From an uncultured Acidobacteriota bacterium (GTDB taxonomy: Bacteria; Acidobacteriota; UBA4820; DSQY01), in assembly GCA_963772255.1 (NCBI GenBank), contig CAVYWK010000022.1, positions 65,388 to 129,387 of the forward strand: a stretch of DNA of 64,000 nt, written 5' to 3'. Numbering within the stretch: the stretch's first letter is position 1; every line of letters starts with the position of its first letter. The position numbers were made by a program, and so were the translations under genes. The notes beneath the pieces are model-generated. The model saw nothing but the letters and a program-made list of their open reading frames with translations. It was not told the DNA's origin and ran no database searches. Positions 3,541 through 38,431 of the stretch are shown here, in pieces.

Positions 3541-3568
3541 CTCTCCCGCTCCCTGCTCCCGGCTCCCA
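3541..3568. repeat. period-7 repeat array (GCTCCCN, complement of GGGAGCR), single arm
   Basis: The sequence ctctcccgctccctgctcccggctccca lies between the SPFH gene stop and the RHH gene start. Confidence 0.7.
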
Positions 3569-16607: not shown

Positions 16608-17081
16608 ATGTTCATGAACGCCAGGTTCAAGGACAAGGAGCACCTCATCCGCATGGGCGCTCTCTTCGTGGGCGCCTTCGTCCTCTTTCTCATCCTGAGG
16701 GCCGTTTTCGTGCCGAAGGGGTTCGGCGCCTACGGCCACTACCGCGCCGGAGCGCTCGCGGACAACAGGGACCATGCCCTCGCATTCGCGGGACGGCGGG
16801 CGTGCGAGGATTGCCATTCCGATGTGGCCCTCGTCAGGAAGGGAAGCAAGCACGAACGGATCGCCTGCGAAGCCTGCCACGGAGCCCAATCCGCGCACGC
16901 CTCCGCCGACGACCCCGCCGCGACCAAACCCAAACTGCCCGACGCCAAGACCCTCTGCCTCGTGTGCCACCAGGACAACGTGGCCAAGCCCAAGGGATTC
17001 CCTCAGGTCAATCCGAAGGAGCACGGCGACGGTGGGCCGTGCACCTCGTGCCACAAACCTCACCACCCCGAAGTCTCATAG
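16608..17081 (+). CDS. membrane-anchored tetrahaem cytochrome c
   Basis: 157 aa with an N-terminal TM helix and four CxxCH motifs (CEDCH, CEACH, CLVCH, CTSCH). The start could be the second ATG (16614). Confidence 0.8.
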   Translation: MFMNARFKDKEHLIRMGALFVGAFVLFLILRAVFVPKGFGAYGHYRAGALADNRDHALAFAGRRACEDCHSDVALVRKGSKHERIACEACHGAQSAHASADDPAATKPKLPDAKTLCLVCHQDNVAKPKGFPQVNPKEHGDGGPCTSCHKPHHPEVS

Positions 17082-17091
17082 GAGCCAGAGC

Positions 17092-17858
17092 ATGGCCATC
17101 GGACCGCCGGGAATTCCTGAAGACCACGGGGACTTTCCTGATCCTCACGGGGGCGGCCTCCCTCGCCTGGGACCAAATCCTGGCGGGAGAGCCTGAGAAA
17201 GCCCCCAACTACAACATGGCCGACCACTGGTGGGCCATGGCCATCGACATCGAGAAGTGCATCGGATGCGGCAACTGCGTGCGCGCCTGCAAAGCGGAAA
17301 ACGGCGTCCTGCTGGAGCCTTTCTACTTCAGGACCTGGGTGGAGCGCTACCACGTCCCCGAGGGCGAACTCGAACACCCCCAGGTGGACTCGCCCGACGG
17401 CGGCTACGACGGATTCCCGGAGAAGTACAGGCCCGGCGACGGGTCCAAGAACTTCTTCGTCCCGAAGCTCTGCAACCACTGTGCGCACAGCCCGTGCGTG
17501 CAGGTGTGCCCGGTGGGCGCCACCTTCGAGAGCCCCGACGGCGTGGTCCTCGTGGACAAGAGCTACTGCCTGGGCTGCCGCTACTGCGTCCAGGCCTGCC
17601 CTTACGGATGCCGCTACATCGACCCGCGCACCAGCACGGTGGACAAGTGCTCCCTCTGCTACCACCGGATCACGAAGGGCCTCACCACGGCCTGCTGCGA
17701 GACCTGCCCCACGAGTGCCCGCGATGCTGGGCGATCTCAAGGACCCGCTGGACCCCATCCACGAGTTCCTCAGAACGCACAAGGTGCAGGTCCTGAAGCC
17801 GCAGATGGCCACCGGCTCCAAGACTTACTACAACGGCCTCGACGGCTCGGTCAGGTAG
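17092..17858 (+). pseudogene. Tat-exported 4Fe-4S ferredoxin-type subunit (NrfC/HybA/PsrB-like), two frameshifts
   Basis: ATG 17092 gives MAI, then there is an extra base at ~17101. The corrected read is MAIDRREFLKTTGTFLILTGAASLAW, a twin-arginine signal. The body is in ORF 16802..18028 (CIGCGNCVRAC, CNHCAHSPC, CLGCRYCVQACP). A second extra base at ~17722 moves the tail (ARMLGDLKDPLDPIHEFL..GSVR) into the frame of ORF 17481..17858. Confidence 0.8.
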
Positions 17859-17868
17859 GGGGGCGACC

Positions 17869-19050
17869 ATGGAATCCATCCTCTACCACGTCCAGGGCTT
17901 CATGTACCCCAACGAAGTGGAGCTCCAGTGGAGCATCCTCATCGTCCTCTACCCCTTCATCACGGGCCTCGTGGCGGGCGCCTTCATCCTCGCGTCGCTG
18001 GAGCGGGTCTTCAATGTGGAGGCGGTGAAGCCCACCTACCGGCTCGCCCTTCTCACGGCCCTCTCGTTCATGCTGGTGGCGCCCCTGCCCCTCCAACTCC
18101 ACCTGGGACACCCCGAGCGCTCCCTCGAGATGTACCTCACGCCCCACACCTCCTCGGCCATGGCCATGTTCGGCTTCGTCTACCTCTGGTACCTCATGGT
18201 CGTGCTCGTCCTGGAAATCTGGCTCGACTACCGAAAGGACATCGTCCTGCAGGCGCGCGCCACCACGGGCTGGACCCGGAAGCTCTACCGCGCCATGGCG
18301 CTCTGGTCCGACAACATCAGCGAGCGCTCCCTCGAAATCGACGACAAGGTGGGACGGTTCATCACCATCGTGGGCATCCCCTCCGCCTTCCTGCTCCACG
18401 GGTACGTGGGATTCATCTTCGGGTCCATCAAGGCGAACCCCTGGTGGTCCACGCCCCTCATGCCCATCGTCTTCCTCTTCTCGGCCATCGTGTCGGGCAT
18501 CGTGCTCGTGATGCTGATGTACATGGTCGTCTCGTGGGTCCGGAGGACGCCGATCGACATGCGGTGCCTGGACACCATCGGGCGTTACTTCATGTACGCC
18601 TTCATCATCGACTTCTCCCTGGAAATGCTGGACCTGATCCACCGGATCTACGAGGCGGACGAGTCCTTCAAGAGCCTCAACTTCATGGTGCACACCAAGC
18701 TCTACACCTCTCAGGTCATCATCCAGATCGTCATGGGGACGGTGGTGCCCATCGGGGTCCTGGCCCTCATCCAGCTCGTGAGGCTGTCCGACACGGCGCG
18801 GAAGGGCCTCTACGCGCTCGCGGGCGGGCTGGCCATGATGGGCATCTTCGCCATGCGGTGGAACGTGGTCATCGGCGGCCAGCTCTTCTCTAAGAGTCTC
18901 CTGGGGTACACCACCTACAAAATGGCCTTCGCCACGCGGGAGGGGCTCTTGGCCACCGTCATCCTCCTCACGCTGCCCTTCGTGATCCTCTGGGTTCTCG
19001 TCAAGCTCCTGCCCCCTTGGCCGGAGAAGGCCGGGGGCGAAACCCGCTAG
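17869..19050 (+). CDS. NrfD/PsrC-family integral membrane quinone-interacting subunit
   Basis: 393 aa and polytopic, with an NrfD-like N-terminus (LQWSILIVLYPFITGLVAGAFILASL). It directly follows the FeS subunit. Confidence 0.85.
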   Translation: MESILYHVQGFMYPNEVELQWSILIVLYPFITGLVAGAFILASLERVFNVEAVKPTYRLALLTALSFMLVAPLPLQLHLGHPERSLEMYLTPHTSSAMAMFGFVYLWYLMVVLVLEIWLDYRKDIVLQARATTGWTRKLYRAMALWSDNISERSLEIDDKVGRFITIVGIPSAFLLHGYVGFIFGSIKANPWWSTPLMPIVFLFSAIVSGIVLVMLMYMVVSWVRRTPIDMRCLDTIGRYFMYAFIIDFSLEMLDLIHRIYEADESFKSLNFMVHTKLYTSQVIIQIVMGTVVPIGVLALIQLVRLSDTARKGLYALAGGLAMMGIFAMRWNVVIGGQLFSKSLLGYTTYKMAFATREGLLATVILLTLPFVILWVLVKLLPPWPEKAGGETR

Positions 19051-25052: not shown

Positions 25053-25110
25053 GGTTCCTCCATCTCACCCGGCCACGGTAGCATCGAGCGGTACGGGAGG
25101 CAAAGGCGAA

Positions 25111-25310
25111 GGAGCCGGGAGCAGGGAGTGGGAAGCAGGGAGCCGAACCTAAATCCCATGGCCGGCGTATTCTCAGTTCCCCGGTTTCCTAGCCCCGAAG
25201 TCCACAATCACCCAATCACGAACTTTGGATGGCGATCAGAGTGGAGCGGCCCAACGGGACCCATGCTTTCCCCTGCTCCGTTCTCCCTACTCCCTGCTCC
25301 CTGCTCCCTG
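25111..25310. repeat. GGGAGCR period-7 arm (25111-25145) and complementary GCTCCCY arm (25266-25310) about 120 bp apart in a divergent promoter region
   Basis: The arms ggagccgggagcagggagtgggaagcagggagccg ... ctttcccctgctccgttctccctactccctgctccctgctccctg lie between the grx start and the dedA start. Confidence 0.75.
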
Positions 25311-25382: not shown

Positions 25383-26057
25383 ATGGAACTGCTGAAGGAA
25401 CTGCTGGGCGCGCTGCACGACCCCGACAAGCTCCGGGCCCTCATCCTCTGGGGGAGCTACCCCGTCCTCTTCGGCATCGTCTATTCGGAAACGGGGCTCA
25501 TGGTGGGGTTTTTCCTGCCCGGCGATTCCCTGCTGGTGACGGCGGGGATCCTGGCGGGTCAAGGGTATTTGAACCCCTGGACCCTGTGCGGGCTGCTCAT
25601 CGCCGCCGCCGTGCTGGGAGACAACACGGGCTACTGGATCGGTCGGAAGACCGGGCCCCTCCTGTTCACCCGGCCCAAGTCGCTCCTCTTCAACCCCTCC
25701 CACGTGAAGCGCGCCCAGGGCTTTTACGACAAATACGGAGCCAAGACCGTGGTGCTCTGCCGCTTCGTGCCCATCGTGCGGACCTTCGCCCCGGTGGTGG
25801 CCGGCGTGGGCAAGATGGTTTACCGGCGGTACGTGGCCTTCAGTATCATGGGGGGCATCGCCTGGATTTCGAGCATGATCCTCACGGGTTACTTTCTGGG
25901 GAGCATCCCGGGAGTGAACCGCTATCTCCACCTCATCATCCTCTCGGTCATCTTCCTTTCCATCCTGCCCGCCATCATCGAAATCTGGCGCGAGAGGAAA
26001 AAGCGACCGACAGGGAGCGGGGAGCGGGGAGCAGGAGTGGGGGACGAAAACCCCTGA
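25383..26057 (+). CDS. DedA-family inner membrane protein
   Basis: Starts MELLKELLGAL and has the DedA signature (GFFLPGDSLLVTAGILAG .. GRFVP-like CRFVPIVRTFAPVVAGV). The last ~12 codons (GSGERGAGVGD) are encoded by a GGGAGCR repeat array at 26011-26045. Confidence 0.85.
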   Translation: MELLKELLGALHDPDKLRALILWGSYPVLFGIVYSETGLMVGFFLPGDSLLVTAGILAGQGYLNPWTLCGLLIAAAVLGDNTGYWIGRKTGPLLFTRPKSLLFNPSHVKRAQGFYDKYGAKTVVLCRFVPIVRTFAPVVAGVGKMVYRRYVAFSIMGGIAWISSMILTGYFLGSIPGVNRYLHLIILSVIFLSILPAIIEIWRERKKRPTGSGERGAGVGDENP

Positions 26058-30915: not shown

Positions 30916-31275
30916 CTAGCGGTTTTCGGCCCGCGTGAGGACGGCGAAAAACGCAAGCGGTGCCGTCCCTGGGTTCGCCAACCCATGGGTGTGCCCCGCC
31001 TTGCACAGCCAGACATCGCCGGGGCCCACATCGAAGGACTCACCGTCCAGAAGCCCTACACCCTGGCCCTCCAGGACCAGATAGAGTTCCTCCGTCTCGG
31101 GGTGCAGGTGTTCGCCCACGGAGGCGCCCGGTTCCAGCGCGATCCGGCTCGCCATGAGGACCCCCGCCATCTCGTCAGGAGTCAGGTAGTCCACCGCCAG
31201 GGCTTTCCCCAATCCCCCGCGGATCTTCTCTTTGACCTGCGTAGGCAGGCTCTCAAGCCTCTTGATCATTTCCAT
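30916..31275 (-). CDS. cupin-domain protein
   Basis: Starts MEMIKRLES. It has the cupin motifs GASVGEHLHPETEELYLVLEG and GDVWLCKAGHTHGLAN. The longer ORF (to 31440) runs through a repeat array and a gene remnant. Confidence 0.8.
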   Translation of the reverse strand: MEMIKRLESLPTQVKEKIRGGLGKALAVDYLTPDEMAGVLMASRIALEPGASVGEHLHPETEELYLVLEGQGVGLLDGESFDVGPGDVWLCKAGHTHGLANPGTAPLAFFAVLTRAENR

Positions 31276-31276
31276 T

Positions 31277-31307
31277 CTCCCTGCTCCCCGCTCCCCGCTC
31301 CCGGTCC
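31277..31307. repeat. period-7 repeat array (GCTCCCY; GGGAGCR on the minus strand)
   Basis: The sequence tctccctgctccccgctccccgctcccggtcc lies between the aceF-end remnant and the cupin start codon. Confidence 0.7.
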
Positions 31308-31309
31308 TA

Positions 31310-31385
31310 CCCTTCCAGCGCCAAGAGCATGGGCTCCTCCAGGGCCTGGCAGACCCACCGGAGAAAGCGCGCGCCGTTGGCGCCG
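31310..31385 (-). pseudogene. orphan copy of the last ~25 codons of aceF (E2): ..GANGARFLRWVCQALEEPMLLALEG-stop
   Basis: It matches 36877-36952 (the real aceF 3' end) at 74/76 nt: one D->N change and one silent change, plus TAG instead of TGA just outside the aligned block. No upstream E2 sequence is attached. Confidence 0.85.
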
Positions 31386-31469
31386 GCCGGTCCAAGGCTT
31401 CAACGATAGCACGGGTCTCCCCGAGCCTCTCTTCCTTCACCCTGCGCTATACTGGCAAGTGAGGGTGCC

Positions 31470-32627
31470 ATGACCGTACCGGCCCGCGTCGACAGAGACA
31501 CCGACCCCGCCCTGTGGGCACTGCGCGAGCGAGTCAAGGAGCTCACCTGCCTCTATGGTATTGCCCAGATTGTGGACAGGACGGACATCTCCATGCAGGA
31601 GGTGGCCGAGCGCGTGGCTTCCCTCCTGCCTCCGGCCTGGCAGTATCCAGAATGCACCTGTGCCAGGGTGACTCTCAACGGCGAAGCCTTCCCATCCAAG
31701 CCCTTCCAAGAGAGCACTCAGCGCCTCGCTGCGGCGGTCGTGGTCGCCGATCACGCTCTTGGGCAAGTCGAGGTCTTTTACTCGGAAATCCGGCCGGCAG
31801 CGGACGAAGGCCCCTTTCTCAAGGAGGAGCGAAGCCTCATCAACGAAGTGGCCCGGCAGTTGTCCCTCATGGTGGAACGCCGCCAGGTGATGGAAGAAAA
31901 TATCCGGCTCGAGGATCAGCTCAGACACGCGGACCGGCTGGCCACCATCGGCCGACTTGCCGCCGGTGTAGCCCACGAACTCAACGAACCCCTTGGTGCC
32001 ATCCTTGGGTTTGCCCAGCTTACCCAAAGCAATTTCGGCATACCCGACCAGACGGCTCGGGACCTGGACAAGATCGTGAAGGCCTCGTTGAGGGCCAGGG
32101 AAATCGTCAAGAGACTGTTGATCTTCGCGCGCCAGACGCCCGCCCAGCGAGTACCCGTCGACCTCACCATGGTCGTGAAGGAGGGCATCTATCTTTTGAG
32201 GGCAAGGTGCGCTAAGGCGGGGATCTCCATCAAGCTGCATTTGGCGGCGGACCTCCCGGCCGTAGAAGGCGATGCGAACCTGTTGCAACAAGTGATCGTG
32301 AATCTGGCCGTGAACAGTATCCAGTCCATGCCCGGCGGAGGTGTGCTGGACATTACCGCCGGGGTGCATGAAGAATCCGTCGTGCTGAAAATCGAAGATT
32401 CCGGGGAGGGGATGACGGAGGAGGTGATGCGCCACGTGTTCACCCCCTTTTACACCACCAAGGATGTGGGTCAAGGAACCGGGCTCGGCCTTTCGGTCGT
32501 TCACGGCATCGTGACTTCGCACGGGGGACGGATCGAACTGGAAAGCGCCGTTGGAAAGGGAACGCGGGTAAGTATTCTCCTGCCTCGTGCGCATGAACCG
32601 GTCTGCGAAAAGAGGAGATCTCCATGA
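31470..32627 (+). CDS. sensor histidine kinase (cytoplasmic sensor domain + HisKA + HATPase_c)
   Basis: 385 aa. H-box AAGVAHELNEPL, N-box VNLAVNSIQSM, G-boxes DSGEGM and GTGLGLS. Confidence 0.85.
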   Translation: MTVPARVDRDTDPALWALRERVKELTCLYGIAQIVDRTDISMQEVAERVASLLPPAWQYPECTCARVTLNGEAFPSKPFQESTQRLAAAVVVADHALGQVEVFYSEIRPAADEGPFLKEERSLINEVARQLSLMVERRQVMEENIRLEDQLRHADRLATIGRLAAGVAHELNEPLGAILGFAQLTQSNFGIPDQTARDLDKIVKASLRAREIVKRLLIFARQTPAQRVPVDLTMVVKEGIYLLRARCAKAGISIKLHLAADLPAVEGDANLLQQVIVNLAVNSIQSMPGGGVLDITAGVHEESVVLKIEDSGEGMTEEVMRHVFTPFYTTKDVGQGTGLGLSVVHGIVTSHGGRIELESAVGKGTRVSILLPRAHEPVCEKRRSP

Positions 32628-33880
32628 CGGCTGTCCAGCGGACCGCGCGAATTCTCCTTGTCGACGATTCGCCGGACACCCTGGAAGTGTTGGAGCGGAA
32701 TCTGGCCAAGCACGGATTTACGGTCATGACCGCGCTGGATGCGCGGGAGGCCATGGCCATTCTTGAGCGAAGCTCCGTGGATCTGCTCATTACCGACGTG
32801 CGGATGCCGGGAATGAACGGTCTGGAACTTCTTCGCCACGTCCGGGAAACGTTTCCCGATACGCAAGTCATGCTGATCACCGGCTACGCCACCATCGAGG
32901 GTGCCGTAGAAGCGATGAAAACGGGCGCCGAAGAATACCTCTCCAAGCCGTTCACAACGGAGGAGCTTCTCGCCGCCGTGGGCCGGGTGCTCGAGAAACT
33001 CCGTACGATCCGCTCACGAAGGGCGGGAAGGTCCCCCGATCATTGGGGACTGGTCGGATCGTCCGAGGTCATGAGGCTCCTGTTTGACGCCGCGGATCGG
33101 GCCGCCCCGTCGCACACTCCCTTGCTCATGTTGGGGGAGGATGGGACCGGGCGGGAGAGCCTCGCGCGTGCGCTTTGTAATGCTGGCCCCCGCGCCGATC
33201 AGCCCTTTCTGGTCTTGAACGGGGAGACGACTCCCCCGGATACGCAGGGCAGGGAAATTGAGCACGGCCTAACTTTCACCCAAGGAGGCACACTGTTTCT
33301 CCGGGCTATTGAGTGCTGGTCGCCCGAGCTGGTGGAAGGGGTCGCTAAGCGTGCCGCAGATACCGCGCCTGGCTGCCGGTTCATGGTCTGTGCGGGATCG
33401 CAATTCCGGTTTCTGGTGGAACGCGGCGCCCTGCCCGGACAGATGGGCCCGCTCCTCAGCTGGGAGACCCTTCGGCTGCCTCCTCTGCGAGAGCGCGGGA
33501 TGGATGTCCTCCTGCTTGCCGAGAGCTTCGCACGGTCCATTGCAACAAACTGCGGCCTCAGGGTACCTGGGATGACGCCGCTTTTCCGTCAGGCGCTCCT
33601 GGCCTACCCCTGGCCCGGCAATGTGAGGGAACTCCGATCTGCGATCTCGGCAGCGGTTCGGGATGGCGCTTCCGATCCGCTGGATCTTCCGGATCTGCCC
33701 TCCACGATCAGGTCATGGAGCCCTTCCGGCGCGCCCGCGACGCGCCCGCTGGGCGAGGTGGAAGCGGAGTATATCCGCGTGGTATTGTCGAGCGTGCAAG
33801 GCAACAAGAGCCGCGCCGCCGAGATCCTCGGCATCGACCGCAAGACCCTCCGCGAAAAACTAAAGTCGGATACATCCTAG
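32624..33880 (+). CDS. NtrC-family response regulator (REC + degenerate AAA+ sigma54-interaction domain + Fis-type HTH)
   Basis: 418 aa. REC domain: ILLVDDSPD..DLLITDVRMPGMNG. Central domain: GEDGTGRE, GGTLFLRAIE, PGNVRELRSAI. C-terminal HTH: GNKSRAAEILGIDRKTLREKLK. Its ATG overlaps the kinase stop. Confidence 0.85.
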   Translation: MTAVQRTARILLVDDSPDTLEVLERNLAKHGFTVMTALDAREAMAILERSSVDLLITDVRMPGMNGLELLRHVRETFPDTQVMLITGYATIEGAVEAMKTGAEEYLSKPFTTEELLAAVGRVLEKLRTIRSRRAGRSPDHWGLVGSSEVMRLLFDAADRAAPSHTPLLMLGEDGTGRESLARALCNAGPRADQPFLVLNGETTPPDTQGREIEHGLTFTQGGTLFLRAIECWSPELVEGVAKRAADTAPGCRFMVCAGSQFRFLVERGALPGQMGPLLSWETLRLPPLRERGMDVLLLAESFARSIATNCGLRVPGMTPLFRQALLAYPWPGNVRELRSAISAAVRDGASDPLDLPDLPSTIRSWSPSGAPATRPLGEVEAEYIRVVLSSVQGNKSRAAEILGIDRKTLREKLKSDTS

Positions 33881-33990
33881 GAACCCAAAGAAAACTCTTG
33901 ACCGCAAAGGACGCTAAGGGCACGAAGAAGAAAGGAACACCTTTGGGCGTCCTTTGCGCTCTTCGCGGTTCGATGTTGCCTTCAGAACTC

Positions 33991-35148
33991 TTAGAAAATG
34001 ACCAGCAGGTTCAGGGCCGCGGTGAACTGGCGGTCCGTGAACCCTCCGCCCTTCTGGAACACGGGCCGATTGGACCAGTCCTGGCGGAAATCGGCGCGCA
34101 CGAGCAAATGCCCGCCGATTTTGTAGGACGGGGTGAGCGTGATCTCTTCAAGGCGCTGCGGCGTGCCCGTTCTCGCCCCGTCGCAATCGTCGAGGCGTTC
34201 CGCGCGCAAGGCCAAACCGAATCGGTCCGTAAACCCGTACACCGCGTACAACGCGGCGCCATACCATCGCGCGCTCGCCCCCGATGCCAAGGCGCCCCGC
34301 TCGTACCCGTCGTCCACGTTGAGTCCGAGGGTCAGCGCGTTCGTGGCTTTCCACGTGGCGCAGAAGTCGATCACGTTTCGCCAATTGGAGTTGTTGCTGT
34401 CCTGCTCGGGGCCACCGATGTAGTTCAGGGTCAAGGCGAGCGGGTCGACGGGTGTCACCACTACCTGTGCGCCGATGGTCTTCCCCGTGTTGTTGTCGCA
34501 GACATTGTCCCAGCCCTGCACGACCATGACGGAGCCCGAGACCTGGTCGGAGAAGGGGTAGGAGATCCTCAGACCTGTATTGGTGAAGGGGGCTGAGAAA
34601 CCGAAGAGGAAGGAGCGGCTGAAGTTGTCGTTGTAGGCATCGTAGCGGTCGATGGACTCGTACCCCACCGGCGCAAAGAACTTGCCAAGGTCAAAGCGTA
34701 GCCCGCGGCCGGCTTTGGCGACGTAGCTCACGTAGGCCTGCTCTATATCGAAGTGGCTCGCCTCGCCCGTCTCCACGTTCCTGAACAGACCGCTCGCCGC
34801 CGTGATCTCCGGCAGGGACTGCCCTCCGGCGAGATCCATGCGGAACCCGAATTCCCCCTGGGAGGCCGCGGCCTTCTGGACGGCGAGAGACAGCACATCG
34901 AGTTTCGCCGCATCGCTCTCGAAGTCGAAGATCCTGTAGCCATTGAGATCCGAATCGGGGTGGTTGTCGTTGTAGGTGTAGGAAAGGGAGGCGAAGAGAT
35001 CCACCTGGATTTTCTTGGTCCAGGGTCCGCTTTCGTCAGGCTTGAGGAGCGCCTGGGATCGGGCGGACAGGGGGGCGGCCAGCGCCGCCACCCCTGCCAG
35101 AACCCAGATGGCCGCCCGCCTAGCGGAGCTAAGGCTGGGAGGAGTCAT
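33991..35148 (-). CDS. outer-membrane beta-barrel porin (type commonly found next to amtB)
   Basis: 385 aa with a signal peptide, alternating amphipathic strands rich in Y/G/D/N, and a terminal ..NLLVIF (C-terminal Phe signature). It lies 3 nt downstream of amtB. Confidence 0.7.
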   Translation of the reverse strand: MTPPSLSSARRAAIWVLAGVAALAAPLSARSQALLKPDESGPWTKKIQVDLFASLSYTYNDNHPDSDLNGYRIFDFESDAAKLDVLSLAVQKAAASQGEFGFRMDLAGGQSLPEITAASGLFRNVETGEASHFDIEQAYVSYVAKAGRGLRFDLGKFFAPVGYESIDRYDAYNDNFSRSFLFGFSAPFTNTGLRISYPFSDQVSGSVMVVQGWDNVCDNNTGKTIGAQVVVTPVDPLALTLNYIGGPEQDSNNSNWRNVIDFCATWKATNALTLGLNVDDGYERGALASGASARWYGAALYAVYGFTDRFGLALRAERLDDCDGARTGTPQRLEEITLTPSYKIGGHLLVRADFRQDWSNRPVFQKGGGFTDRQFTAALNLLVIF

Positions 35149-35151
35149 GGC

Positions 35152-36399
35152 TCAGACGCCCTCTAGGTAGGCCTGTTCGCCATGTAGTCCCTCGTCCAAT
35201 CCCACCGTTTCGTGGGCTTCCTCAACCCTGACCTTCGTGATCTTGTTGATAACCCAGAGCATGGCCAGGGTGAAAACGAAAGCCCATATCGAGGAGAAAA
35301 CAACGGCCCACAACTCCACCAAGAAGAAATGGACGTTGCCCCTGAGCAGGCCGTCCACGCCGCCCGACGAGGCTGGATTAAATGCCGTGGTCGCGAAGAT
35401 GCCACACAGCACGATGCCCAGGAATCCGCCCACTCCGTGGACGCCCCAGACATCCAATGCATCGTCCCACTCCAACTTGTTTTTTAGGGCTACGGCATAG
35501 AAACAGACCACGCCCGCGATGATACCGATGAGGGCGGCGGTGGTGGGCGAGACGTAGCCCGCGGCCGGAGTGATGGTGGCCAGGCCCGCCACGGCGCCCG
35601 TGAGGAGGCCGAGAAACTTGGGCTTCTTGGAGGTCATCCAGTCCATCACCAACCACGCGATGGCGGCGAAGGAAGCGGAGATGTCCGTGTTGAGGAAGGC
35701 CACCGCCGTAACCGAGTCCACGCGAAACTCCGAACCGGCGTTGAACCCGTACCACCCGAACCACAGCAGTCCCGTCCCCAGGGCCACGAGGGGGATGCTG
35801 TGCGGCCCGCGGTCGAGGACCTTGCGCTTGCCCACATAGAGGATGGAGGCGAGGGCGGCGATGCCCGCGATGTTATGCACCACGATGCCGCCCGCAAAGT
35901 CCTTCACTCCCCAAGCGGCCATGATGCCGCCGCCCCACACCATATGGACGAAGGGGAAATAGACGAACAGCAGCCAACCCGTGAGGAAGAGCATATAGGC
36001 CTTGAATGTGACTCGGTTGGTGAAGGCCCCCGTGATGAGGGCCGGCGTGATGATGGCGAACATCATCTGGTAGGCGCAGAAGACGATCATGGGAATGGTG
36101 TCATTGGGAGAGGGCATATCGAGGGTAATGCCCCGAAGAAAGGCCCAGTGGAAATTCCCGACGATCCCGGCGAAGTCAGTTCCGCTCTGCAGGTCGCCCG
36201 AGAAGCACATGGAGAACCCCACGGCCCACCAGAGGACCGTCGTCCAACCCATGGAGACGAAGCTCTGGATCATGATGGCGAGCACGTTCTTCCGGCCCAC
36301 CAGCCCCCCGTAGAAAAACGCCAGCCCGGGGGTCATGAGCATGACCAGGCTGGAGCACAACAACATGAACGCGGTATTTCCCGTGTCGAGATGGAGCAT
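35152..36399 (-). CDS. amtB: ammonium transporter
   Basis: 415 aa, Amt/MEP family throughout (DTGNTAFMLLCSSLVMLMTPGLAFFYGG .. DFAGGIVVHNIAGIAALA .. WGVHGVGGFLG). Confidence 0.9.
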   Translation of the reverse strand: MLHLDTGNTAFMLLCSSLVMLMTPGLAFFYGGLVGRKNVLAIMIQSFVSMGWTTVLWWAVGFSMCFSGDLQSGTDFAGIVGNFHWAFLRGITLDMPSPNDTIPMIVFCAYQMMFAIITPALITGAFTNRVTFKAYMLFLTGWLLFVYFPFVHMVWGGGIMAAWGVKDFAGGIVVHNIAGIAALASILYVGKRKVLDRGPHSIPLVALGTGLLWFGWYGFNAGSEFRVDSVTAVAFLNTDISASFAAIAWLVMDWMTSKKPKFLGLLTGAVAGLATITPAAGYVSPTTAALIGIIAGVVCFYAVALKNKLEWDDALDVWGVHGVGGFLGIVLCGIFATTAFNPASSGGVDGLLRGNVHFFLVELWAVVFSSIWAFVFTLAMLWVINKITKVRVEEAHETVGLDEGLHGEQAYLEGV

Positions 36400-36873
36400 C
36401 GTCCCCCCCTTTCATTCCGTTTTCCCGGGGCACGCCCCGGACCCAACCTGCCCCTCGGTCATCAGGCACCGGTGGGCGAACACCGAAAATGCGGGGGCTT
36501 TCTCCCCACAATACGATTCAAGATGCTCCGGACTCGTAGGGTTGAGAAGTCGTGCGGAAAAGACACGACAAAATAGGGCGATATACCCCGATTAGTGGGT
36601 ATTATTTCCTCAGGTAGCCAGGTGGGAGGTTTGCATTTTGGGCACGGCTTCTAGCAGGAGCCACGGGCTTTGGCTCCGTGTTCCGGAGCACTGCCGCGGA
36701 CGGAGCGCAGTCCAGCCAGTTCACCCGGACAAAGTCACCGCGGGAAGGGGTGCGCTCCACCCCTCAACGAGTCGCCTCCTGCTTTTCCGAGGCAGGAGGC
36801 CGGGGTTCTTCACGGGTCCCCTGCTCACCAACTCTCCTACTCACCTGCGTTCCTTAATCTCAATCCCCAACGT

Positions 36874-38211
36874 TCACCCTTCCAGCGCCAAGAGCATGGG
36901 CTCCTCAAGGGCCTGGCAGACCCACCGGAGAAAGCGCGCGCCGTCGGCGCCGTCGATGAGGCGGTGGTCGTAGGAGAGGGAGAGGGGCAGGATCGTGCGC
37001 GGCTGGAATTGGCCCTCCCTCCAGACCGGCTGAATCTCGGACCGCGACACGCCCAGGATGGCCACCTGGGGCCAGTAGACGATGGGCGAGAACCCCACGC
37101 CCCCGATGCCGCCGAGGTTCGAGAGCGTAAAGGTGCCACCCTCCATGTCCTCGGGCGAAATGCGCTTCGTCCTGGCCTTTTCGGCGAGGGCGGCGATCTC
37201 CGCGGAGAGCGCGGTGATGTTCTTTTTGTCCGCGTCGCGCACCACGGGAACGAGGAGGCCTCGGTCCGTGTCCACGGCCACGCCCAGGTTCACGAACTCC
37301 TTGAAGACGATCTCGCCGTGCTCCACATCCAAGCTCGCGTTGAACTGCGGGAAGGCCCTGAGCGCGCCCGCCAGGACCTTCACGAGGATGGCCGTCATGG
37401 TGAGTTTGCCGCCCGCCGCTTCGACCCTCTTGGCGTGCTTGGCCCGGAAAACCTCCAGGTCGGTGATGTCGGCCTTGTCGTACTGGGTGACCGTGGGCAC
37501 GGTGGCCCAGGCGTGGGCCATGCTCTCGGCGGTGATCCTGCGCACCTTGCTCATGGCCTCCCGGCGAACCGGGCCAAACCGGGCGGGATCGGGCAAGGCC
37601 TTGGACGGGACGGCGGCCCCGGGCACCGCGGGCACCCCCGCGCCCATGACGAGCTTGGCGTGGATCTTCACATCGTCCGCCGAGACGCGCCCTCGCGGGC
37701 CCGTCCCCGTGACCTGGGTGATGTCCACGCCGAGTTCCCGGGCGAGCCTGCGCACCGACGGCGCCGCCGGCGTGGAGGGCTTGGGCATGGAGGCATCCGG
37801 GCCGGCCATGGGCCTGGCGGGTTGAACGGCGGGTGGCGGGGTGGCGCGTGCCGGGCGCGAGGGCTCGGGAGCTGGTGACGGGTTCGGAGGAGGATTGTTT
37901 GGGAGCGGCGCGGGAGCCGCAGTGGCCTTGGCGGCGGCGGGCGCGGCGGGCGTGGCTGCCCCGGCCTCAGCGCCCGCGGCTTCCACCCGCACCACGACCT
38001 GCCCCACCTTGATGCTCGTTCCCTTCTGGGCCAGCACCTCCACCACGGTCCCCGCCTCGGTGGATGGCATCTCGAAGACGGCCTTGTCGGTCTCCAGCTC
38101 CAGGAGGGGCTGGTCCAGGACCACCGCGTCGCCCACTTTGACGAGCACTTTCACCACGTCCGCGGCGTTGGTGCTCTCCGACAGTTCGGGAAGCTTGATG
38201 TCTTTGATCAT
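36874..38211 (-). CDS. aceF: dihydrolipoamide acetyltransferase, E2 of the pyruvate dehydrogenase complex
   Basis: 445 aa. It has a lipoyl domain (LELETDKAVFEMPS), an Ala/Pro linker, a subunit-binding domain (PSVRRLARELGVD) and a catalytic domain (SLSYDHRLIDGADGARFL). Confidence 0.9.
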   Translation of the reverse strand: MIKDIKLPELSESTNAADVVKVLVKVGDAVVLDQPLLELETDKAVFEMPSTEAGTVVEVLAQKGTSIKVGQVVVRVEAAGAEAGAATPAAPAAAKATAAPAPLPNNPPPNPSPAPEPSRPARATPPPAVQPARPMAGPDASMPKPSTPAAPSVRRLARELGVDITQVTGTGPRGRVSADDVKIHAKLVMGAGVPAVPGAAVPSKALPDPARFGPVRREAMSKVRRITAESMAHAWATVPTVTQYDKADITDLEVFRAKHAKRVEAAGGKLTMTAILVKVLAGALRAFPQFNASLDVEHGEIVFKEFVNLGVAVDTDRGLLVPVVRDADKKNITALSAEIAALAEKARTKRISPEDMEGGTFTLSNLGGIGGVGFSPIVYWPQVAILGVSRSEIQPVWREGQFQPRTILPLSLSYDHRLIDGADGARFLRWVCQALEEPMLLALEG

Positions 38212-38224
38212 TTAAACCCCTTTT

Positions 38225-38431
38225 CGGGAGCGGGGAGCGGGGAGCGGGAGCGGGAAAAGCAGGAGGCGAAGAAGTGGCAAAAGCTGCTCCGTGTGTCCCT
38301 TCAGCTCCCCGCTCCCTGCTCCCGGCTTCCGCCCTTTTTTCGTAAGCGGTGAGCAGTGAGCGGAATAAGATAAAGACGATGCTTCGCGTTCATTCTCGGC
38401 TCCCTGCTCCCCGCTCCCTGCTCCCGGCTTC
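38225..38431. repeat. aceE-aceF intercistronic repeat cluster: GGGAGCG x4 arm, two GCTCCCY arms, and a GTGAGCR array
   Basis: Arms: gggagcggggagcggggagcgggagcggg (38226-38254), cagctccccgctccctgctcccggcttcc (38302-38330), gtaagcggtgagcagtgagcgg (38342-38363), ggctccctgctccccgctccctgctcccggcttc (38398-38431). Confidence 0.85.

Follow-up and report, generated by a model that had tools for sequence, protein, structure and literature searches.

We have analyzed a 64-kb stretch of DNA from an uncultured Acidobacteriota genome (hereafter the window, meaning the whole stretch) in which the last 77 nt of aceF, the gene for the E2 dihydrolipoamide acyltransferase, occur twice. One copy ends the genuine gene, and the other lies as an orphan upstream of a cupin gene. 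Between them sits a cassette encoding a histidine kinase (HK), an NtrC-family response regulator, a porin and the ammonium transporter AmtB. We conclude, with moderate confidence, that the orphan was left as a scar when a cassette-bearing haplotype of this locus recombined with a cassette-free one, in an event resembling homology-facilitated illegitimate recombination (HFIR). The features of the locus are listed below, with L numbers denoting loci fetched from other genomes.

30916..31275, minus strand: cupin gene (Pfam), separated from the orphan by a 31-nt spacer
31276..31306, minus strand: native aceF-cupin spacer with (GGGAGCR)n heptamers, its 31 nt identical to cassette-free L095
31309..31385, minus strand: repeat copy A (the orphan), an aceF 3' end outside any open reading frame, with TAG as its stop (31307-31309)
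31386..31392, no strand: putative illegitimate joint of the HK-proximal cassette end (...TTGGACCG) to aceF position -77 (CGGCGCC...)
31386..31469, no strand: region upstream of the HK gene, cassette DNA, with the conserved motifs CAGTATAGC and GTGCTATNGTTG
31470..32627, plus strand: HK with HisKA and HATPase_c domains (Pfam)
32624..33880, plus strand: NtrC-family response regulator with a degenerate AAA+ domain (Pfam and motif comparison)
33991..35148, minus strand: BBP2 (OmpL-like) beta-barrel porin (Pfam), 3 nt downstream of amtB
35152..36399, minus strand: AmtB ammonium transporter (Pfam)
36400..36612, minus strand: conserved part of the amtB leader, common to L081 (3975-4100) and L093 (690-780) and partly to L003
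36613..36873, minus strand: 261-nt segment directly after the aceF stop codon, with local hairpins, starting TGA-ACGTTGGGGAT
36876..36952, minus strand: repeat copy B, the genuine end of aceF, 25 codons and the T of the TGA stop (36874-36876)
36874..38211, minus strand: aceF, 445 aa, with lipoyl, E3-binding and catalytic domains (Pfam)

A repeat search placed the two copies at 31309-31385 and 36876-36952, with 75 of the 77 nt identical (97%) and a spacing of 5567 nt between their starts. All remaining repeats within the surrounding 13 kb measured ≤32 nt. On the aceF sense strand, the repeat extended from 25 codons before the stop through the T of the stop codon, and the homology broke off sharply at both ends. 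The duplication of the aceF 3' end, which the original prediction had located at 31310-31385, was therefore real, although its extent had been set one base short at one end (74/76 instead of 75/77 identical positions). When compared with L094, each copy was identical at 76 of 77 positions and carried a single private change, namely a synonymous G>T in copy B and a G>A in copy A that would correspond to D423N. Copy A belongs to no gene because a stop sits 31 codons upstream of its end. An exact-protein look-up returned no record of the window AceF.

The nearest genomes were those of uncultured Acidobacteriota. In neighbor-joining trees of AceE and of the AceF catalytic domain, the window grouped with L094, L095 and L096 (clade A, bootstrap 100%), being sister to L094 in the AceE tree (90%). 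L081 and L093 formed clade B (99-100%), L001 and L003 formed clade C (99%), and L002 stood alone. The identity of L094, L095 and L096 to the window was 89-92% for AceF (amino acids), 97% for AceE, 86-90% for the cupin and 86-88% for the propeller protein encoded beyond it.

Both allele types were found among these related genomes, the cassette-bearing one at this locus on five contigs besides the window (L081/L082, L093, L098, L099 and L003). The direct succession of aceF and cupin, which the original prediction had proposed to look for in relatives, was present in L001, L002, L094, L095 and L096, including the three closest relatives. The full cassette-bearing order was read in L081/L082 (aceE, aceF, amtB, porin, regulator, HK, cupin, propeller), with L093 and L003 showing aceF followed by amtB, and L098, L099 and one JGI contig showing the HK gene adjoining cupin. 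A pattern scan of metagenomes for the aceF tail retrieved one contig only, L093. In more distant Acidobacteriota neither cupin nor amtB followed aceF.

The aceF-cupin locus of this Acidobacteriota family has two old haplotypes. The cassette-free one consists of aceF, a spacer of ~30-85 nt and a cupin gene whose product starts MIK(K/R)LE. The cassette-bearing one comprises aceF, the leader, amtB, the porin gene, the regulator and HK genes on the opposite strand, a short junction and a cupin gene with the start M(K/R/L)(M/I)K.A(E/D)LKG. Rather than having arrived once, the cassette occupies this locus in several lineages.

Aligned with the cassette-free relatives, the orphan with its TAG stop, the spacer of (GGGAGCR)n heptamers and the cupin start proved collinear with the aceF-cupin junction of L095, the orphan and spacer being 97% identical to L095 in the first 120-nt interval compared. 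Therefore, copy A and what follows it represent the untouched downstream end of a cassette-free allele. Excising the block in silico through the repeat yielded an intact AceF with one change (D423N), followed by an L095-type junction. This agreed with the cassette-free relatives and bore out the earlier claim that removal of the block would place aceF next to the cupin gene. The cassette-free state of the relatives, together with the match between the orphan junction and L095, likewise supported the earlier interpretation of the fragment as an insertion scar.

On the cassette side, 31386-31469 aligned with L081, L098 and L099 through CAGTATAGC and GTGCTATNGTTG as far as GGACCG. Past this point, the junction of L081/L082, L098 and L099 was unrelated over ~45 nt and led into a cupin gene that starts differently; no aceF fragment was found in these three other readable HK-cupin junctions. 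Since the cassette ends at GGACCG in L081, L098 and L099, the joint at 31386-31392 links mutually non-homologous sequences. The joint (GGACCG-GC-CGGCGCC) shows a 2-4-nt G/C overlap that is indistinguishable from chance in 65% GC DNA. At the other end of the block, a search for a decayed cupin copy after the true aceF stop by Smith-Waterman alignment against six relatives scored no better than shuffles, and a search for a spacer copy there gave only weak 13-18-nt matches to the L001/L002 spacers (z ~2.7).

The window cupin gene proved to be a mosaic, with the first ~56 nt of L095 type and the remainder of L094/L098 type. All 12 informative sites before the breakpoint sided with L095 vs 64 of the 159 after it, and the best breakpoint fell between 31211 and 31210 (Fisher p = 3.5e-5, ~0.006 after correction). 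The L098 locus was mosaic as well. Its propeller and cupin body (90.6% and 92% identical to the window, respectively) placed it in clade A, and its porin was 93% identical to that of L099, a locus whose propeller was only 73.8% identical to the L098 one. The L098 cupin was chimeric, the first ~55 nt (1416-1469) being of clade-B type and the rest (1116-1415) 90-100% identical to the window. The clade-A flanks, the L099-like porin and the chimeric cupin of L098 thus show that homologous recombination brought a clade-B-like cassette into a clade-A genome, the right-hand crossover falling inside the cupin gene.

The exchanged segment lies between two conserved arms. For the left arm, the aceF tail, identity was 95-99% among clade-A members and 84-87% relative to clade B (L081, L093), and the window and L081 agreed over 27 consecutive nt. 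The right arm, the cupin body from about nt 58, was 90-98% identical even between clades. As the mosaics of L098 and the window change over at one point, the region from the aceF stop to approximately cupin nt 58 thus behaves as a replaceable segment between conserved arms. Both haplotypes pass between lineages by homologous recombination, with the aceF 3' end and the cupin body serving as arms; for the cassette, such a transfer is demonstrated in L098.

We have then compared the age of the cassette with that of the joint. At four-fold sites, the window and L081 diverged by 0.48-0.90 in the cassette genes and by 0.52-0.72 in the flanking genes. Cassette and flanks being equally diverged from L081, the cassette lineage of the window is therefore about as old as the clade A/B split. 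The split from the nearest relatives amounts to 0.10-0.39 per site, and a neutral orphan would gather 4-15 changes on the window branch. The orphan, which is non-coding, showed one private change in 77 nt; therefore, the joint that created it arose long after the cassette lineage did, and probably no earlier than about the time of the split from L094. The original prediction had deduced a recent event or ongoing gene conversion from the near-identity of the two copies. The orphan-making junction is indeed young, but the 75/77 identity by itself is weak proof of this because the stretch is 95-99% conserved across the clade.

A comparison of the composition of the block with that of its flanks had also been proposed. 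The GC content of the block was lower than that of the flanks (60-63% vs 64-70%), and so was the GC content at third codon positions (GC3) of the HK and regulator genes (73% vs 80-94%). However, this supported a recent foreign import only weakly because the HK and regulator genes of L081 also sit low in GC3 within their own genome (77.5-81% vs 81-90%).

What we observed directly comprises the structure of the locus, its two haplotypes, the mosaics and a block free of recombinase genes; for the order of events, the donor allele and the uptake route, we infer the following course. A cassette-bearing allele, ending in ...GGACCG just upstream of the HK gene, would have been joined illegitimately to a cassette-free allele at aceF position -77. 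The second exchange would have been homologous and located either in the cupin gene near 31210 or in aceF/aceE. From the cassette-free allele would come the last 77 nt of aceF, the TAG stop, the spacer and the cupin start, that is, the orphan. Such an event would combine one homologous anchor with one illegitimate end and involve no mobile-element enzyme. The repeat ends exactly at the stop codon because homology between the haplotypes stops there. In the tree, the window is nested among cassette-free genomes. No integrase, transposase or recombinase gene was found in the block, which its four genes fill without leaving room for another, and no terminal inverted repeats paired the block ends. 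A plasmid search returned no counterpart of the cassette, only generic amtB similarity.

Several points weigh against such a course. No cassette-bearing clade-A parent with the cassette type of the window has been sampled, the closest non-self homologue in an HK search being only 74-76% identical, with no nearer cassette relative. Being short and G/C-rich, the microhomology at the joint has no diagnostic value. Despite the L095-type spacer, the orphan is closer to the aceF of its own genome and to L094 (76/77) than to L095 (74/77); an unsampled donor or a later gene conversion is therefore needed. Finally, a linear version of the event (HFIR) and a circular one (single crossover) would yield the same product.

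The circular version is of Campbell type, in which a circle made of 77 nt of aceF, the leader and the cassette, closed illegitimately, would have integrated by one RecA-dependent crossover within the 77 nt, leaving repeats that could later excise the cassette. It predicts exactly the structure seen, and we regard it as a real but minor possibility. The closest relatives are cassette-free and the in-silico excision gives an intact locus, and experimental single crossovers of partly homologous circles leave flanking duplications of 109-950 bp (PMC3240628). Yet 77 nt is short for RecA-mediated integration, the near-identity of the 77 nt implies a same-clade donor of which no cassette-bearing example has been sampled, and the cupin breakpoint at ~31210 is not explained by the model itself. 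In an extended scenario, which seems rather unlikely to us, the 77-nt repeats would make the cassette a RecA-driven pop-in/pop-out unit in a population holding both states, with lineages switching between them and gene content thus varying at a housekeeping locus, and the aceF tail and cupin body would be the standing arms of a long-lived cross-species two-haplotype system. A duplication dating from the first entry of the cassette and kept 97% alike by gene conversion or by selection (on the 5' untranslated or promoter region of cupin) would fit with the equal divergence of cassette and flanks from L081, which allows the cassette to be old in this lineage, with the 97% conservation of orphan and spacer relative to L095, and with a conserved TGCTATNGT box upstream of the orphan. 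We nonetheless hold it to be unlikely. Parsimony speaks against it, given that the window falls within a group of cassette-free genomes and that no orphan is present at the other readable junctions (L081/L082, L098, L099); moreover, the spacer and cupin 5' end belong to the cassette-free haplotype and are bounded by a recombination breakpoint.

Direct repeats of a gene 3' end around an insert are typical of integrative islands, and the 77-nt repeats follow this pattern. They could hence be read as attL and attR of an island that lacks its own integrase, is mobilized in trans, targets the aceF 3' end and restores the gene, and the patchy distribution of the cassette, which at least three clades carry at this one locus, would be compatible with such targeting. 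This explanation is very unlikely in view of the rest of the evidence. The block has no integrase, excisionase or transposase and no plasmid or phage link was found; three other cassette-bearing junctions have no second aceF copy, and the joints differ among cassette-bearing lineages, as seen in four genomes. In addition, the right junction of L098 is a homologous crossover within cupin and not an att site, and the cassette occurs in aceF-less, unrelated contexts in other Acidobacteriota. A transposon or insertion sequence was rejected, given that there was neither a transposase nor inverted repeats at the block ends and that 77 nt is far beyond target-site duplications. The locus could also be an assembly chimera, as the genome is probably metagenome-assembled and both haplotypes exist in nature, so that a cassette-bearing and a cassette-free strain might have been stitched through their common aceF end. 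We find this very unlikely as well. A repeat-induced misjoin would switch within the shared 77 nt and would not make the adjacency of the cassette end and aceF -77, each copy has its own private substitution, and the contig is 414 kb long. As to the remnant of a second, deleted E2 paralogue, which the original prediction had considered and which should show longer homology upstream, nothing beyond the existence of the fragment speaks for it. The homology stops at 77 nt, what lies upstream of the orphan is the HK-proximal cassette end common to L081, L098 and L099, and the fragment matches the orthologous L094 aceF at 76 of 77 positions and occupies the orthologous position before cupin. This ruled out the paralogue for practical purposes, its probability being close to nil.

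The recombination between haplotypes that we favor has counterparts in known systems. Cases of HFIR are known from Acinetobacter, Pseudomonas stutzeri and Streptococcus pneumoniae as well as from E. coli conjugation (PMC3240628; PMC5361080, its references 41, 42 and 47), and the mechanism has been proposed for the orphan arrays of type VI secretion system (T6SS) and Rhs loci, where the old 3' end is pushed downstream (PMC5361080). Duplications and orphans such as those of the window are documented results of this recombination (PMC3240628, PMC5361080). The window shares with HFIR one homologous exchange (the mosaic breakpoint), the lack of element enzymes and foreign or extra DNA beside a conserved anchor, and its putative illegitimate joint would be the non-homologous end. 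It differs in that the case is built on comparative genomics, in that the joint microhomology is not diagnostic, and in that 77 nt are duplicated, whereas classic HFIR deletes recipient DNA. With single-crossover (Campbell-type) integration (PMC3240628), the window has in common an insert between direct repeats of a homologous segment and reversibility by recombination between them; unlike in that system, the homology spans just 77 nt and cupin contains an extra breakpoint, and no circular intermediate is known.

The displacement of Rhs C-terminal regions and the orphan immunity arrays of Vibrio cholerae T6SS loci (PMC5361080) are similar in that an incoming conserved part with new genes displaces the old 3' end and alleles are exchanged among related strains. 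In the window, however, the orphan is the non-functional 25-codon tail of a housekeeping E2 and not a toxin tip with its immunity gene; the genes carried along serve nutrient uptake, and one orphan stands in place of an array. Integrative islands that duplicate a target 3' end resemble the window in having direct repeats that bracket the block and a gene that stays intact. In contrast to them, the window lacks an integrase, the repeat is missing from other carriers at the locus, and copies of the cassette are found elsewhere without aceF.

The original prediction had described a module of HK, degenerate NtrC-type regulator, porin and amtB with a leader region, and all of these gene calls were borne out by Pfam. 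The intergenic gaps within the block measured 84, 110 and 474 nt, the last being the amtB leader. In the regulator, relative to the E. coli reference sequence, the GAFTGA loop is deleted, GESGTGK has become GEDGTGR (Walker A K>R) and the Walker B DE pair is gone; the receiver domain, the lid and the Fis-type helix-turn-helix are kept. The same motif losses were seen in every cassette copy examined. Since both Walker motifs have lost key residues (the lysine of Walker A, the acidic pair of Walker B), ATPase activity of the regulator is unlikely, and it probably acts without sigma-54 and without ATP hydrolysis. The amtB leader contained no match to TGGCAC-N5-TTGC, the sigma-54 -24/-12 promoter. 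NtrC proteins without GAFTGA are found in Caulobacter and Rhodobacter capsulatus, VpsR of V. cholerae is a further case, and enhancer-binding proteins acting with sigma-70 have been described (bioRxiv 10.1101/2023.06.06.543975; PMC6158489). The window regulator resembles the latter in missing the sigma-54 contact loop.

No P-II/GlnK homologue was found in the 64-kb window (best tblastn E = 0.1), and glnK was likewise absent from six other cassette copies. The earlier observation that glnK does not accompany amtB was thus correct, but its absence is normal for this cassette in Acidobacteriota and not unusual, as had been supposed. As in amtB-glnK/NtrBC systems, AmtB is paired with an NtrB/NtrC-family two-component system; unlike in those systems, glnK is missing, amtB is coupled to a dedicated BBP2 porin, and the Walker A lysine and Walker B pair are lost. 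In all cassette copies (window, L081, L083, L087, L088, L098 and L099), amtB was followed within 3-30 nt by the BBP2 porin gene and never by glnK. This gene order suggests a dedicated outer-membrane channel coupled to ammonium uptake and a regulation that would proceed without an adjacent P-II protein.

The same four genes in the same arrangement were found in unrelated, non-aceF neighborhoods, on a Holophagales chromosome (L083) and on other contigs. Within the Acidobacteriota, amtB together with the porin, HK and an NtrC lacking GAFTGA recurs as a nitrogen-uptake unit devoid of glnK. AmtB was 85-95% identical to many Acidobacteriota AmtB proteins, across orders, and to those of some metagenome-assembled genomes labeled Planctomycetota (matches including L083, 10001-11245, and P0001-P0120). 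Among genomes with AmtB at this level, the porin, HK and regulator were only 45-60% identical. The contrast between AmtB and its partner genes suggests either extreme constraint on amtB or its separate exchange. The AmtB of L003, at the same aceF locus, was only 80% identical.

Putative regulatory elements were located in the non-coding parts of the block. Upstream of the HK gene, CAGTATAGC and GTGCTATNGTTG are candidate divergent -10 boxes, and a TGCTATCGT box sits upstream of the orphan. Two further elements were noted in the amtB leader.

36583-36602: palindrome ATACCC-N8-GGGTAT within GGGGAAATAATACCC...GGGGTAATTAACCC, a candidate operator
36490-36510 (hairpins to 36540): leader hairpin or hairpins followed by a T-run

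The leader contains three G-rich/C-rich arms (GCGGGGCAT, TGCGGGGA and GCCCCGCAT) and then TTTT, and these arms could form alternative hairpins in the manner of an attenuator. Rfam gave no credible match in the leader or the block, only spurious microRNA matches to a hairpin between aceE and aceF, and a scan for sigma-70 and terminator consensus sequences performed no better than chance.

The segment at 36613-36873 begins with TGA-ACGTTGGGGAT, which resembles the sequence downstream of aceF in L094/L096. Neither the fetched loci nor the rest of the window contained a homologue of the segment, and L081, L093 and L003 have just ~35-80 nt in its place. Strong local hairpins are present (CCUCCUGCC...GCAGGAGG and GGGGUG...CACCCC) and may end aceEF transcription. 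The predicted fold of the segment was no more stable than shuffles.

Arrays of (GGGAGCR)n heptamers were dispersed in intergenic DNA of the window (14 matches vs 0 expected), as listed here in two parts.

3549-3567, 25110-25142, 25283-25308 and 26013-26031: (GGGAGCR)n arrays, part 1
31277-31302, 38226-38244, 38305-38330 and 38400-38425: (GGGAGCR)n arrays, part 2

Their position was often immediately behind a stop codon, such as that of aceE or of the orphan aceF, and between aceE and aceF they form a long hairpin (38225-38324). In L094/L096, the aceF-cupin spacer holds an expanded (GGTGATC/GGTAATC)n heptamer array instead.

A cluster of cytochrome c, Fer4 (4Fe-4S) and NrfD-type genes was observed on the HK side of the cassette in the window (16626-18843) and in the Holophagales L083 (19009-21245), and also in L099 (484-2652). 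It lies 12.6 kb from the cassette in the window vs 4 kb in L083, in opposite orientation, with 51-71% amino acid identity between the window and the Holophagales genome. This single observation hints at an old linkage between cluster and cassette, or else at chance.

The recombination scar described here is of an already known kind and leaves the current understanding of recombination unchanged. For the Acidobacteriota, it offers a natural example of how a functional cassette spreads among uncultured soil and sediment members without mobile-element machinery. The arms for recombination are provided by conserved flanking genes, and now and then an illegitimate joint leaves the tail of a gene behind as an orphan. 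Such orphan gene fragments can be used as markers for dating and orienting exchanges in metagenome-assembled genomes.

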